Source: an uncultured Gammaproteobacteria bacterium (GTDB lineage Bacteria > Pseudomonadota > Gammaproteobacteria > Arenicellales > Poriferihabitantaceae). Taken from it: a DNA stretch of 64,000 bases. The notes under the pieces are model-generated. The model did not search any database, was not told where the DNA came from, and saw nothing but the letters and a program-made list of their open reading frames with translations. Positions within the stretch are counted from its first letter, which is position 1; each line of letters begins with the position of its first letter. Below are positions 40,431 through 49,713 of this stretch, piece by piece. The stretch is from NCBI GenBank assembly GCA_947259885.1, contig CAMYNW010000001.1:148216-212215 (forward strand), in the 5' to 3' direction. The position numbers and the translations under genes were made by a program.

Positions 40431-43064
40431 CTAGGCTGGTGCAATAGATTTTTCTCTGCGCCTGCGCTGCACCCAGAATATCAATCCTAACAACAGCGCG
40501 GCCGGGATATAGAATACCTCCTTGAGCACGCGATCTTTCTCGCTTCGGATTACACCCACCTCCACCGGTTGGTCACCATAATAATCGAACGACTTTCCAA
40601 TTGACTCGAAAAATGGGGTGCCCGGAAAAGGTTCCTCAATCAGGGCCCTGTCGTTTTCCATAACGATGTTAAGACCGGCAGTCTGCAACCGATCCGGAGC
40701 TTCTGCTTCATCACCGACAGGAACAAGAATAGTGGTACTGGTGATATCCCCGCTGTCAAAATCCGGCCCCTTGACCGTCATGGTGATCACACTGCCAGGC
40801 ACCGCGTCGCCTACGACCTCATAGATCATCGAAGGTGACAGATCTTCAAATGGTGGATCGACCCGATCGAGCCAGAATCCGGGTCGGAATAGGGTAAATG
40901 CCACTAGTAACAATGCGACCGATTCCCATATCCGATTGCGTATAACCAGCCAGCCCTGAGTGGCGGAGGCGAATAACATCATCGCAATGACAGCCACCAC
41001 AAATACGAAAATAGCCTTACCTGGAGACACATCGATCAGCAGCAGTTCAGTATTAAATATAAAAAGGAAGGGCAGCAGCGCGGTTCGAATATCGTAAGCA
41101 AAACCCTGTAGGCCTGTCTTGATTGGGTCTCCCCCGGAAATCGCGGCCGCCGCGAATGCCGCCAGACCCACAGGCGGCGTGTCGTCAGCCAGTATTCCGA
41201 AGTAGAACACGAACAGGTGAACCGCGATCAAAGGCACGATCAGGCCGCTGGCAGCTCCAAGAGTTATAATCACCGGTGCCATCAGTGATGACACTACGAT
41301 GTAATTTGCCGTGGTGGGCAGCCCCATACCGAGGATCAGACTCATCACCGCAACCAGGATGAGCATTAGAATCAGGCTGCCTCCAGACAGAAATTCGACA
41401 AATTCTCCAACGACCTGGTGGGCCCCCGTAAGGGAAATGGTGCCAACGATAATCCCCGCCGCACCGGTGGCGACACCAATCCCAATCATGTTTCGTGAAC
41501 CGGAAATCATGCCATTCACCCATTCTCCAACACCGCGCCTGAAGGCCGCGCCCAGATGGCCGCTGCCGCGAAACATCGCTTTAATCGGGTGCTGCGTTAG
41601 CGCTACCGTAATCATGGCAATGGTGGCCCAAAAGGCGGAAAGTCCGGGTGAGAGTCTTTCTACGATGATGCACCAGATCAAGATAACGATTGGCAGAATG
41701 TAATACAGCCCGGTAATGGCGGTGGCGCCAGCCCTGGGCAATTCCGTTATTGGAGCATCGGGTGCATCTACAACCAGGTCAGGATGACGTGACGCAAGCC
41801 ACAGCAGTATCAGGTAAAAGATCGAACAGCCAATAACCACAATGGTGAATGCCATATCCGGAGCGGCTGTTTTGATCCACCCCATCCCGTAATAGACGAT
41901 CAGTCCCAGTATCGCGATACCGATAAACCCACCAAGAAACCCGATAATCTTGGTAGCAAATGTAAGTGTAGAGGGGGGCTTCTTTAGCCCTTTAAGATCC
42001 ATTTTCATGGCCTCAAGATGCACGATATATACCAATGCAATATAGGACACCAGTGCAGGTACCAGGGCATGTTTGATGATCTCAGTATAGGCAATACCGG
42101 TAAACTCAGAAATGAGGAAGGCGGCGGCGCCCATTACGGGGGGGGTGAGCTGGCCGTTGGTAGAGGACGCCACCTCTACTGCGCCTGCTTTCTCCGCCGA
42201 AAATCCGGTACGTTTCATCAACGGAATCGTGAAGGTGCCGGTTGTCACCGTATTGGCAATTGACGACCCGGAATAAAGTCCGCTCAGTGCCGAAGCTACT
42301 ACTGCAGCCTTTGCAGGGCCACCGCGAAAATGGCCTAGCAGCGCAAATGCAATCTTGATGAAAAAATTTCCCGCACCGGCCTTTTCCAGAATTGATCCAA
42401 AGAGTACGAACAGAAAAATTAAAGAAGCCGAGACACCCAGGGCGACGCCGAAGACCCCTTCGCTTTGCATCCAGTAATGCCACATGGCCTTGCCGTAAGA
42501 TGCCCCCTTCCAGCGGATGGCATCGGGCAGGTTTTCCGAATGACCGAAAAACACATAGAGTACAAATACGGACGCAACGATTACCAGTGGTAAACCAAGA
42601 GCGCGATAGACGGTTATCCCCAAAACCAGCATACCAATTGTGGATACGACCAGATCACCACCAGTTGGCAATCCCGCACGAACCGCTATTTCGTTGCGCA
42701 AAACCACGATATATAGACACGACATAATTCCAAGTGCCGCCAGAAGCCAGTCGTACCAGGGAATCGTGTCGCGAGGACTCGATTTGAAAAGCGGGAAAGC
42801 CATCGCGGCGAGAAACAGGGCAAACGCAAGGTGAATCAGACGCGCATTAGAGTTGGTAACCACCAGACTGATGCCGGTCATATCGGTGAGTGTAAATGGC
42901 AGATTGGAAGCGATATAGAGCTGAAACAATGCCCAGATAAAAGCCACACCTGGTATCAGGTTGCGCATCCACCCTTGCGGATTGCGAGCGCCGGTATCGA
43001 CTGATGCGACAAGATCGTCCGCAGTTACGCCGGTCTTGGCGTTAGTTTTTGAATTGCCTGCCAT
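40431..43064 (-). CDS. TRAP transporter fused permease (TAXI-associated 4TM/12TM fusion) with a C-terminal extra domain
   Basis: 877 aa and highly polytopic. It lies adjacent to a TAXI receptor. The roughly 150-aa soluble-looking segment before the last TM resembles the DUF3394-type extension seen in this permease class. Confidence 0.9.
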   Translation of the reverse strand: MAGNSKTNAKTGVTADDLVASVDTGARNPQGWMRNLIPGVAFIWALFQLYIASNLPFTLTDMTGISLVVTNSNARLIHLAFALFLAAMAFPLFKSSPRDTIPWYDWLLAALGIMSCLYIVVLRNEIAVRAGLPTGGDLVVSTIGMLVLGITVYRALGLPLVIVASVFVLYVFFGHSENLPDAIRWKGASYGKAMWHYWMQSEGVFGVALGVSASLIFLFVLFGSILEKAGAGNFFIKIAFALLGHFRGGPAKAAVVASALSGLYSGSSIANTVTTGTFTIPLMKRTGFSAEKAGAVEVASSTNGQLTPPVMGAAAFLISEFTGIAYTEIIKHALVPALVSYIALVYIVHLEAMKMDLKGLKKPPSTLTFATKIIGFLGGFIGIAILGLIVYYGMGWIKTAAPDMAFTIVVIGCSIFYLILLWLASRHPDLVVDAPDAPITELPRAGATAITGLYYILPIVILIWCIIVERLSPGLSAFWATIAMITVALTQHPIKAMFRGSGHLGAAFRRGVGEWVNGMISGSRNMIGIGVATGAAGIIVGTISLTGAHQVVGEFVEFLSGGSLILMLILVAVMSLILGMGLPTTANYIVVSSLMAPVIITLGAASGLIVPLIAVHLFVFYFGILADDTPPVGLAAFAAAAISGGDPIKTGLQGFAYDIRTALLPFLFIFNTELLLIDVSPGKAIFVFVVAVIAMMLFASATQGWLVIRNRIWESVALLLVAFTLFRPGFWLDRVDPPFEDLSPSMIYEVVGDAVPGSVITMTVKGPDFDSGDITSTTILVPVGDEAEAPDRLQTAGLNIVMENDRALIEEPFPGTPFFESIGKSFDYYGDQPVEVGVIRSEKDRVLKEVFYIPAALLLGLIFWVQRRRREKSIAPA

Positions 43065-43190
43065 AGTATCTTCCCGCGTCGTTTTTATAAGAATTTAAGT
43101 AAATTGGAAACTGACTAGCTTCAGACCGCCTGCGAGGAGCTTATCCGATCGCGCAGGCGTTGAAATATAAAGAGTAGGGTCGTTGGGCCC

Positions 43191-43217
43191 AAAAAAAGGG
43201 CGGCCTGTGGCCGCCCT
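43191..43217 (-). terminator. Rho-independent terminator/attenuator between the TAXI receptor and permease genes
   Basis: On the minus strand, AGGGCGGCC-ACA-GGCCGCCCT is followed by a run of seven T. It lies 14 nt after the receptor stop codon. Confidence 0.8.
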
Positions 43218-47681: not shown

Positions 47682-48093
47682 AATGCGATCTGTGGGAAAA
47701 GAATAATTTCGGTATCAGGGAGTTAATTGACGGACCTTCCTGTGCAGGTTTGGTAGTGGTCCAAATGCGTCCAGACCGGACAAGGAGTATGGTACGTGCG
47801 AACATTGAATAGCAACAAAAATATCCAGACCAGGAAGTTTCAAATGACACATAAAATGAAACTCCTTATCCCATTCTGTCAGAAAATCCCTGTTCCCGCA
47901 ATTTATAGAAATCTGGCTGGGATTTTGGCCTGGGAAGAGATCTTGGTCCGCCTGCTTCCGTCCTAAAGTACGTCGCGCTTGATGCGCGTTTTGCTTGGGG
48001 CTGGACTTGAGAATCTGAGAATAATTGCGGTTTCAGCGCTGAGACTGTGACTTTCTTCAGGGTAACGGAGGTAAGGTGAGGGTGGTCGCGATA

Positions 48094-49713
48094 TCAGGCC
48101 CAATCCTGTTTGACCATGTCAGCACATTTTTCCCCGATCATGATAGTCGGTGCATTGGTATTGCCTGATACGATATCTGGCATGATCGATGCATCGGCTA
48201 TTCGCAGTCCTTCGATTCCGTGGACTCGAAGACGAGTATCGACCACAGCCTGGGAATCGCTGGCCGGACCCATTTTGCAGGTGCAGGCGGGATGGTAGAT
48301 AGTAGTAGCGGTGTTACGCGCGTGCTCGAGCAATTGCTCGTCAGTCTGAATATGTTCGCCGGGATCATGCTCTCCGGTGATCAATGGCTTTAACGCCGGC
48401 ATACTGGCAATTCGACGTGAAGCTTTCATACCGTCTACCGCAACCTGGCAATCCAGATTGGTGCTGAGGTAATTTGGCTGAATGGATGGGTAATCATAGG
48501 GGTCCGCCGACTTGATTTTGACTTCCCCTTTGCTCGATGGGCGCAATTGGCAAACCGAAGAGGTGAACGCGGAAAAATCGTGCGTGCCTTCTCCCGGGCT
48601 GTCGGAACTAAGTGGCTGGTAGTGAAATTGGATATCGGGACGTGCCACATCATCCCGCGAGCGTGTAAAGATTGCCACCTGACTCGCCGCCATAGCCATC
48701 GGCCCAGTGCGAAACGCCATGTATTCAAGTCCAATCAGCATTTTTCGCAGTGGATTACTGATCTCATCATTCAATGTCGGTTGGCGACATTTGTATACCG
48801 CTCGAATTTGCAGGTGATCCTGAAGGTTCTTGCCGACCCCTGGCAAATCCACTACGCTGTCGAGGCCCAATTTCTGGCATAAGCCACCCGGTCCAATGCC
48901 AGATATCTGAAGAATTTGCGGTGAGCCAATTGCGCCAGCACTAATTAAAGTTTCCCGGGAAGACACCGCATGCTGAATCTGCCGTTTGTGAAGGTACTCC
49001 ACTCCGGTGACCCTGTTCCCTTCCAAAAGCAGTCTTGACACCTGCGTGGAGGTCATAATTTTCAAGTTTGTGCGCGATCGAGCAGGTTTCAAATAACCGG
49101 TGGCGGTGCTGCAACGCCAACCTTTGCGCGTAGTAAGCTGGAAGTATCCAACTCCTTCCTGAGTGGCACCGTTGATATCATCATTTGGTGGAATTCCAGA
49201 TTCAATGGCGGCCTGAATAAATGCATCCGTAATTTTTCTGCGCAGGCGAATGTTAGATACCGCTAAAGGCCCCCCCGAACCATGATAATCATCGGCGCCA
49301 CGCTCTTGATCTTCGGAACGTTTAAAGTAGGGAAGCACATCCTCAAAACTCCAACCGGGATTTCCTGCTGCGGCCCAAAGGTCGTAATCTTCAGGCTGGC
49401 CTCGCACATATAACAGGCCGTTAAGAGAGCTTGATCCTCCCAGAACCTTTCCGCGGGGCCACTTGAGTTGGCGGCCATTTAATCCGGGGTCAGGATCAGT
49501 GACATAACACCAGTCAACCGCCGGGTTGTGCATGGTCTTAAAATATCCGACCGGGATATGAATCCACGGATTCCAGTCTCTGGCACCCGCTTCCAATAAC
49601 AACACTCTGACCTCAGGATCTTCGCTCAGCCGGTTTGCAATAACACATCCTGCGGAACCCGCTCCGACAACGATATAGTCAAAGATTTCTTTGCTTTCTT
49701 TTGCTTCAATCAT
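48094..49713 (-). CDS. GMC-family FAD oxidoreductase (choline dehydrogenase-like)
   Basis: 539 aa with [20 protein letters not shown], the GMC signature [14 protein letters not shown], and C-terminal HPACTCKMG ... [11 protein letters not shown]. Confidence 0.92.

Follow-up and report, generated by a model that had tools for sequence, protein, structure and literature searches.

Two kinds of gene clusters that contain hpsN, hpsO and hpsP, for the oxidation of 2,3-dihydroxypropane-1-sulfonate (DHPS), are described in the literature: hpsRNOUP-suyAB in Cupriavidus pinatubonensis JMP134 (Mayer et al. 2010; PMC11382572) and hpsRKLMNOPQ-slcD in Ruegeria pomeroyi DSS-3 and its relatives (PMC4334477, PMC11131964, PMC13335735). 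In R. pomeroyi the genes for isethionate are arranged as iseR-iseM-iseL-iseK-iseJ (PMC4334477), and isethionate clusters of the iseJ and xsc type occur on plasmids of Paracoccus, Leisingera and Caballeronia. VcGluPQM from Vibrio cholerae (VC0430/VC0429; PMC11574862; PDB 8S4J) is a glutamate-specific TRAP transporter of the TAXI family. Here we examine a 9.3-kb stretch (positions 40431 to 49713) of 64 kb of DNA from an uncultured gammaproteobacterium, in which counterparts of genes from these systems lie side by side; "the window" refers to the 64 kb at its full length. We consider it likely that the 9.3-kb stretch consists of adjacent units with separate functions, a hydroxy-sulfonate oxidation module and a separate TAXI-TRAP uptake system. 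This reading is carried by orthology, diagnostic residues and gene neighbourhoods, which are read from the sequence, and from these we propose the substrates, the transcription units and the location of the missing steps.

The preliminary description of this DNA listed six open reading frames (ORFs) on the minus strand. Their coordinates, order and families agree with the ORF list and with the Pfam and NCBIfam matches, and the locus reads as follows.

48094..49713, minus strand: IseJ-like GMC flavoprotein dehydrogenase, probable isethionate dehydrogenase (Pfam GMC_oxred_N/C)
46356..47651, minus strand (ORF open to a GTG at 47681): hpsN, (R)-DHPS 3-dehydrogenase (sulfopropanediol 3-dehydrogenase), Histidinol_dh family
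45564..46337, minus strand: hpsO, SDR-type (R)-DHPS dehydrogenase
44496..45485, minus strand: hpsP, zinc-dependent MDR-type (S)-DHPS dehydrogenase (ADH_N/ADH_zinc_N)
44206..44495, minus strand: AT-rich spacer, containing a promoter-like site that would serve the TAXI-TRAP unit
43231..44205, minus strand: TAXI-family TRAP solute-binding protein, GluP-like (TIGR02122, 350 bits)
43196..43218, minus strand: terminator-like hairpin at the junction between the binding protein and the permease (10-bp stem with 8 GC pairs, then TTTTTGG)
40431..43064, minus strand: fused TAXI-type TRAP permease (QM), 877 aa, with a C-terminal DUF3394 "claw" (TIGR02123, 607 bits)

The GMC gene is separated from hpsN by 412 bp, and hpsP from the TAXI gene by 290 bp. 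The latter spacer is AT-rich, as had been remarked (its GC content is 34%, versus 51% for the whole locus), and the terminator that had been placed between the binding protein and the permease is indeed there, as a hairpin followed by a run of T (43218–43196). The gaps contain no riboswitch or other known RNA, based on the absence of any Rfam match at E ≤ 0.1 across 39300–51800. There is no credible ORF for a hidden gene in the gap between the GMC gene and hpsN, such as the TerC gene that is present at this place in L053 and L056 (the L numbers designate the loci that we retrieved).

The locus is similar to that of C. pinatubonensis in that hpsN and hpsO are adjacent and in the same order, and in the motif and catalytic residues of HpsN. 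It differs in that the window has no LacI-type HpsR, no MFS transporter HpsU and no SuyAB, in that hpsP directly follows hpsO, and in the presence of an IseJ-like GMC gene upstream. With the R. pomeroyi type it shares the hpsNOP order and the residues that determine the R/S selectivity of HpsO and HpsP, but the DctP-type HpsKLM, HpsR and SlcD are missing; the window HpsN is about 57–61% identical to those of the roseobacter loci that we fetched.

The hpsNOP genes

The HisD-like protein of the window is 61% identical to C. pinatubonensis HpsN (CpHpsN) over 430 aa, and it matches PF00815 with 443 bits. Among solved structures, HpsN 8v35 and R. pomeroyi HpsN (RpHpsN, 8wwe) give scores of 600.8 and 510 bits, respectively, while the best HisD gives 246 bits. 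HpsN and HisD are discriminated by a motif, G-R-Y-A/S-H in the former and G-S-A-P-L in the latter, the final histidine of the HpsN motif (His126) being a ligand of the sulfonate (PMC11382572). The window protein has the HpsN-specific G-R-Y-A-H at residues 131–135 (it reads GGRYAHIAS, residues 130–138 of the 441-aa ORF). In CpHpsN, Glu318, His319 and Asp352 are catalytic, Gln248, His251 and His411 bind zinc, and Lys353, His359 and Ser226 contact the sulfonate or the carboxylate (PMC11382572). A pairwise alignment shows that Q248, H251, E318, H319, D352, K353, H359 and H411 (Cp numbering) are all kept in the window protein, and that S226 is replaced by T.

We also considered that the HisD-like protein could be a biosynthetic HisD. 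Its much higher scores with the solved structures of HpsN than with HisD, and the presence of the GRYAH motif, rule this out. The remark that this HisD-family gene has no hisG or hisC around it holds for the entire 64-kb window, which contains neither of the two, nor any other his gene.

The true start of hpsN is most likely the ATG at 47651, giving a protein of 431 aa, since this is the start called in GCA_049669845.1 (identical locus) and it fits the length of the homologues (433–435 aa). Close homologues of this protein are named "sulfopropanediol 3-dehydrogenase" by JGI. Gammaproteobacterial HpsN are already known from a published sequence network and from North Sea metagenome-assembled genomes (MAGs) (PMC11382572; bioRxiv 10.1101/2024.12.10.627767). 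The hpsN assignment, well supported as it is, is therefore not new.

The SDR is 48% identical to C. pinatubonensis HpsO (CpHpsO), and its top match in the PDB is R. pomeroyi HpsO (RpHpsO, 8wwf, 265 bits). Liu et al. 2024 (PMC11131964) showed that Q147 of RpHpsO recognizes the hydroxyl group at C2 of R-DHPS. Residues S149, Q151, Y162 and K166 of the window protein align with S145, Q147, Y158 and K162 of 8wwf, which means that the S-Y-K triad and the glutamine responsible for stereoselectivity are both kept. The Zn-MDR is 49% identical to C. pinatubonensis HpsP (CpHpsP), and D. shibae HpsP (8wwd, 317 bits) is its only PDB match below 1e-30; His59, Glu60 and Glu139 of HpsP are kept, at positions H59, E60 and E138 of the window protein. 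HpsO and HpsP had been presented in the preliminary description as a pair of enzymes that racemizes DHPS. This model dates from 2010 and is outdated: as reported by Liu et al. 2024 (PMC11131964), each enzyme is specific for one enantiomer, R-DHPS for HpsO and S-DHPS for HpsP, and forms sulfolactaldehyde by oxidation at C3.

In most of the 80 genomes whose hps loci we retrieved using HpsN, the three genes occur in the order hpsN-hpsO-hpsP. The proposal that the trio of HisD-like, SDR and MDR genes corresponds to hpsN, hpsO and hpsP is thus supported by the full-length orthology of their predicted products to characterized enzymes (in identity and in matches to solved structures), by the diagnostic residues and by the conserved gene order.

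The closest relatives of the window locus are found in gammaproteobacterial MAGs (L002–L007 and L035), with identities of 70–81% for HpsN, 58–66% for HpsO, 53–72% for HpsP and 64% for the GMC enzyme (to that of L006). These loci are organized as IclR, divergent from DctP - fused DctQM - (GntR) - hpsNOP - (GMC), and they have the same combination of C3-sulfonate and isethionate genes as the window; in L003, xsc abuts hpsN on its upstream side. The DctP binding protein and the fused DctQM permease (about 824 aa) that these closest HpsN relatives carry directly upstream of hpsN are absent from the window lineage, in which, moreover, the GMC gene is upstream rather than downstream and a TAXI-TRAP unit lies downstream.

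Among the loci that we fetched, hpsNOP is accompanied by DctP-type transporters of two architectures, either separate HpsK, HpsL and HpsM or a DctP protein and a fused QM permease of about 824 aa. The latter type is seen in L002, L004, L006, L007, L022, L024, L026, L029, L035, L053 and L056, as opposed to the roseobacter-type loci within L012–L081. In this set of loci, IseJ-like GMC genes placed in or directly beside the hps cluster occur only with the fused-QM type, and the same is true of IclR genes upstream of the transporter.

A fully syntenic copy of the window locus, 94–98% identical, is present in the MAG Gammaproteobacteria bacterium Ww423 (L045, JAHEGU010000002.1). Another contig of the same MAG has a second cluster, suyB-hpsKLM-hpsNOP (L025, JAHEGU010000088.1), whose HpsN, HpsO and HpsP are 62%, 54% and 58% identical to those of the window, respectively. 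The Ww423 lineage thus appears to hold two diverged sets of hpsNOP.

We propose that the GMC enzyme and HpsNOP form a cytoplasmic module for the oxidation of hydroxy-sulfonates. HpsN, which has the HisD fold and would use Zn2+ and NAD+, would convert (R)-2,3-dihydroxypropanesulfonate in two steps, via sulfolactaldehyde, into (R)-sulfolactate. HpsO (SDR) would take R-DHPS and HpsP (Zn-MDR) S-DHPS, so that both forms of algal DHPS could enter the pathway. Desulfonation of the products would then fall to enzymes whose genes lie elsewhere; in close relatives, the routes seen are those of Xsc and SuyAB.

Searches with tblastn across the whole 64-kb window detected no suyAB, xsc, pta or cuyA-like gene and no FMN-dependent dehydrogenase (a gene which follows hpsP in other loci), and no HpsR, IseR, HpsK of either type, HpsLM, HpsU or IseKM; that no desulfonation enzyme lies in the window had been noted before. 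The only MFS gene of the window (11755–12936) is 31 kb away. It is reasonable to assume that the genes for uptake and desulfonation lie in another part of this genome, since Ww423 has its second suyB-hpsKLM-hpsNOP cluster, and the closest hps relatives have xsc or DctP and the fused QM permease beside hpsN.

The GMC dehydrogenase

The GMC gene upstream of hpsN had been tentatively linked to the isethionate dehydrogenase IseJ. The protein passes the NCBIfam subfamily model PRK02106 "choline dehydrogenase" (647 bits, for a cutoff of 605), it scores below the cutoff of the BetA equivalog (550 < 732), and solved structures are uninformative. Its closest annotated homologues (61–63% identity) lie in clear isethionate clusters, and over the isethionate clusters that we compared (L048, L082, L083 and L084) the identity is 59–63%. 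In Paracoccus seriniphilus, for instance, IclR-TRAP(M,L,K) is divergent from GMC-xsc; in Leisingera the same IclR-TRAP/GMC core occurs without xsc; in Caballeronia the order is xsc-pta-IclR-GMC-MFS. In the Roseovarius locus L048, iseR-iseMLK is divergent from the GMC gene, the gene order being that of iseRMLKJ in R. pomeroyi, and the cluster is situated 0.7 kb after hpsP.

In a neighbour-joining tree, the GMC proteins encoded next to hps genes and those of ise clusters fall into one clade (56–78% identity), the window protein included, in which they are interleaved by taxonomy, and the other GMC paralogues (38–48% identity) are clearly outside. That the proteins sort by taxonomy and not by gene context argues for a single function of these GMC enzymes. 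Together with the contexts of the closest homologues, this supports the assignment of the window GMC to the IseJ orthologous group, as a probable isethionate dehydrogenase, and the tentative link has held up. The enzyme would then most likely oxidize isethionate to sulfoacetaldehyde.

Unlike the isethionate clusters, the window has no iseR, iseKLM, iseU or xsc adjacent to the GMC gene. Neither an isethionate transporter nor iseR nor xsc is found in the 64 kb, and these are present in the equivalent clusters of relatives (L002, L003, L053, L056). IseJ-like GMC genes or IseR-like IclR genes recur in the hps clusters of relatives (L002, L006, L024, L029, L053 and L056), in various arrangements: hpsNOP-GMC in L006; GMC-hpsR, divergent from DctP-QM-hpsNOP-suyAB, in L024 and L029; IclR...DctP-QM-GMC-TerC-hpsNOP in L053 and L056. 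Clusters of the types seen in L006, L024, L029, L053 and L056, as well as L003, all have the DctP binding protein and the fused QM permease of about 824 aa. A DctP-type binding protein from SAR11 is reported to bind isethionate and DHPS alike, which gives a simple reason for C2 and C3 sulfonate genes to travel together.

It may be asked whether the GMC enzyme of hps clusters acts on a C3 sulfonate instead, either by converting sulfolactate into sulfopyruvate, as an analogue of SlcD, or by oxidizing the C2 hydroxyl of DHPS. The gene does occur in or beside hps clusters with no adjacent xsc in at least four arrangements (the window and L045; L006; L024 and L029; L053 and L056), and, on chemical grounds, sulfolactate and DHPS both contain the HO-CH(R)-CH2-SO3 skeleton of isethionate. 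However, the mixing of hps- and ise-context proteins in the tree gives no sign of an hps-specific subfamily, IseR-like IclR regulators and xsc accompany the same type of cluster in relatives, and the dual specificity of the SAR11 protein is sufficient to explain why the genes are found together. We regard a C3-sulfonate function as rather unlikely, and retain isethionate as the probable substrate.

The TAXI-TRAP unit and the uptake of sulfonates

The preliminary description suggested that the TAXI-TRAP system downstream of hpsP has been recruited as the DHPS importer of the locus. This suggestion is not borne out: the binding pocket resembles that of VcGluP, none of 80 relatives of the transporter has hps genes nearby, the unit has a promoter-like site of its own, and the TRAP system of the closest hpsNOP relatives is of the DctP type.

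The binding protein has its best PDB match with 8S4J, the glutamate-specific VcGluP of V. cholerae (431 bits, 62% identity). Nine of the 13 residues of the VcGluP pocket are identical in the window protein, among them Y45, Q93, E125 and S75, and the other four are changed (S40G, D157T, Y200W and M201L). Mutation of Y45 and Q93 in VcGluP lowers the affinity 213- and 990-fold, respectively, E125 contacts the amino group of the ligand and S75 its alpha-carboxylate (PMC11574862). The conservation of the contacts to the amino group and to the alpha-carboxylate argues against DHPS as the ligand, since DHPS has neither group. The permease has Pfam DctM and, at residues 684–871, DUF3394 (PF11874, 182 bits), and VC0429 (VcGluQM) has the same fused architecture with the DUF3394 claw (PMC11574862); the arrangement of the gene pair is also the same as in V. 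cholerae.

Upstream of the TAXI gene, the 290-bp spacer contains a perfect -35 element, TTGACA, at 44385–44380, and a weak -10 element, TATCTA, at about 44363–44358. This TTGACA shares an alignment column with the conserved TTGACA-17-TAATAAT promoter of TAXI loci that have no hps genes. A scan with the promoter consensus gives a second site at 44479–44451.

To place the unit among its relatives, we used the 80 closest homologues of the binding protein from metagenomes (65–86% identity), in 43 cases with 3 kb or more of sequence upstream. No hpsN, hpsO, hpsP or GMC gene is found near the TAXI gene in any of these 80 loci. The pocket signature of the window protein is identical in 56 of the 80, which suggests that this lineage has not modified the specificity of the TAXI protein. 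The usual neighbours in this clade are a Usp gene, an RpiR regulator, a class-III aminotransferase and a BKACE enzyme (L087, L099, L102, L105, L140, L143, L146, L149, L155, L159, L160 and L167), and the same RpiR-aminotransferase-BKACE-TAXI-TRAP-Usp unit is carried by a plasmid of Thalassospira marina. In 13 loci (L090, L094, L096–L098, L100, L101, L106, L111, L117, L119, L158 and L163), the neighbours are a DMT protein and a CuyA-like pyridoxal phosphate (PLP)-dependent lyase, and about half of these loci also have a 2-hydroxyacid dehydrogenase; the best NCBIfam match of this lyase is the D-cysteate sulfo-lyase CuyA, with 335 bits, below the cutoff of 450. The aminotransferase, BKACE and CuyA-like neighbours suggest that the clade may naturally bind some amino compound that is not simply glutamate.

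Some of these relatives (L085, L086, L088, L092, L094, L096, L097 and L098) have, together with the TTGACA-17-TAATAAT promoter, a conserved leader of about 90 nt, about 110 nt before the TAXI start (for example, L097:4518–4627). It contains a hairpin with an invariant GCCGAA loop and with compensatory changes in 6 of the 11 predicted pairs; after the hairpin come two invariant elements, TCGGC and TCGAAGGAGA. It has no Rfam match, and is possibly an unannotated cis-regulatory leader. It is absent from the region upstream of the TAXI gene in the window (44206–44495).

On the other side of the unit, at 39548–40000 on the minus strand, a 150-aa ORF with no family match sits where TAXI-TRAP relatives usually have the Usp gene.

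From these observations, the TAXI-TRAP is probably an independent importer of the glutamate type, whose ligand is probably glutamate or a related amino acid. It would be a separate, widespread transporter of the VcGluPQM type that has a promoter-like site to itself and an attenuating hairpin between its two genes, and that adjoins hpsP only in this lineage.

Several points weigh against our view that the stretch combines two separate units. No terminator is predicted between hpsP and the TAXI gene, so that read-through, and co-transcription with the TAXI gene, is possible. The 64-kb window contains no sulfonate transporter, no regulator and no desulfonating enzyme of the pathway, and, with the DctP-type transporter of the relatives missing from the locus, another system could have taken its place. 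Albidovulum litorale (L064) also has a TAXI-TRAP unit, 60% identical, beside an hps cluster. Compared with VcGluP, the window protein has four changes in the 13-residue pocket, and its marine clade often has an aminotransferase, BKACE, RpiR or the CuyA-like lyase as neighbours, which suggests that the ligand is not necessarily plain glutamate. As for the enzymes, the margin by which the SDR is recognized as HpsO is small (a "gluconate 5-dehydrogenase", 6le3, scores 263 bits versus 265), its orthology being supported by its synteny with hpsN and hpsP, and the IseJ assignment is based on homologues defined by synteny and not on a biochemically characterized IseJ sequence.

The hypothesis that the TAXI-TRAP imports DHPS (and perhaps isethionate) for the hpsNOP/iseJ module, in place of the DctP-type HpsKLM or the MFS transporter HpsU, draws on several of these points: the transporter genes are directly adjacent to the module, on the same strand and with no predicted terminator after hpsP, the DctP and fused-QM transporter of the closest hps relatives is absent here, and Albidovulum provides a second case of adjacency. 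In addition, the published survey of the neighbourhoods of DHPS-binding proteins covered only the DctP family IPR018389, so that a link with TAXI proteins would have been missed. We searched the literature for a connection between TAXI transporters and DHPS, cysteate or sulfonates and found nothing relevant. However, the four residues by which glutamate is held at its amino group and its alpha-carboxylate are kept in the pocket, which shares its signature with 56 relatives that have no hps neighbours, with no sign of re-specialization; none of the 80 closest relatives adjoins hps genes, and the spacer provides the unit with a promoter-like site. As for Albidovulum, its TAXI unit comes with a separate RpiR regulator, and the hps cluster beside it with a separate hpsKLM; one independent co-occurrence of TAXI and hps genes in 80 hps loci is close to chance level (about 0.4 expected, by our own estimate for a single-copy gene and ±10 kb). 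We consider this replacement to be improbable.

Another possibility is that the adjacency is functional but the substrate is not DHPS: the TAXI-TRAP would import an amino-sulfonate, cysteate or cysteinolate, and HpsN would also serve in the oxidation of cysteinolate. It is known that an HpsN from Bilophila transforms L-cysteinolate into L-cysteate, and that CpHpsN binds L-cysteate (PMC12814064). The residues of the pocket that bind the amino group are kept, and the 13 related loci mentioned above pair the TAXI-TRAP with the CuyA-like PLP lyase and a membrane protein of the DMT family. On the contrary, the match of this lyase is under the family cutoff, the window has no cuyA, cuyB or cuyC, and the locus encodes the DHPS-specific enzymes HpsO and HpsP, whose specificity residues are intact. 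Besides, the TAXI clade is equally often found beside the class-III aminotransferase and BKACE, which is not suggestive of sulfonates. This hypothesis therefore has a very low probability in our opinion.

More generally, we think it unlikely that the TAXI-TRAP has been co-opted in this lineage for the uptake of any substrate of a sulfonate module, be it DHPS, isethionate or an amino-sulfonate such as cysteate or cysteinolate. In the small chance that the ligand is a sulfonate, an amino-sulfonate would agree better than DHPS with the pocket and with the CuyA-like neighbours. If the co-option were true, this would be the first sulfonate-specific TAXI transporter.

Neighbouring genes and significance of the locus

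Beside the TRAP permease, on the plus strand (35649–39366), lie a gene of the aspartate aminotransferase family and a gene encoding an 809-aa DAO-FAO_M-GCV_T protein, of the dimethylglycine/sarcosine dehydrogenase type. Further on, on the minus strand (31546–35538), there is a set of three genes unrelated to the locus, which encode a MoxR-type AAA ATPase (34627–35538), an unassigned 331-aa ORF (33648–34643) and a TgpA-like transglutaminase (31546–33633).

The remaining genes of the window are housekeeping genes and others that are also unrelated to the locus. In addition to the MoxR/TgpA set, the aminotransferase and the dimethylglycine-dehydrogenase-like protein, they include tkt-pgk, an Mrp antiporter, a DoeB-like deacetylase, YgiQ, a CsgG-like lipoprotein, rmlCD and ffh, as well as grpE and two ORFs that follow it, which are probably dnaK and dnaJ, judging by position and size alone. 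At 5316–5852, an ORF of 178 aa for a class-II fructose-bisphosphate aldolase covers only positions 147–276 of the 277-position Pfam profile, and its frame becomes open just behind the stop codon of pgk (5271). The fba gene thus lacks its N-terminal half, owing to gene decay, a deletion or an assembly join.

The hps/IseJ locus is of a known type, and its arrangement is specific to this lineage. DHPS and isethionate are major currencies between phytoplankton and marine bacteria, and it is useful to know which lineages oxidize them. The locus adds a gammaproteobacterial lineage, that of the MAG Ww423 and its relatives, to the known carriers of hpsNOP. Regarding the TAXI-TRAP, it also shows that annotating this abundant clade as sulfonate transporters on the basis of adjacency alone is unwarranted.

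Taken with its relatives, the locus shows that IseJ-type genes are repeatedly found in or beside DHPS clusters. This co-location fits the idea of a shared funnel of C2 and C3 sulfonates toward Xsc, and that of a DctP-type binding protein with dual specificity.

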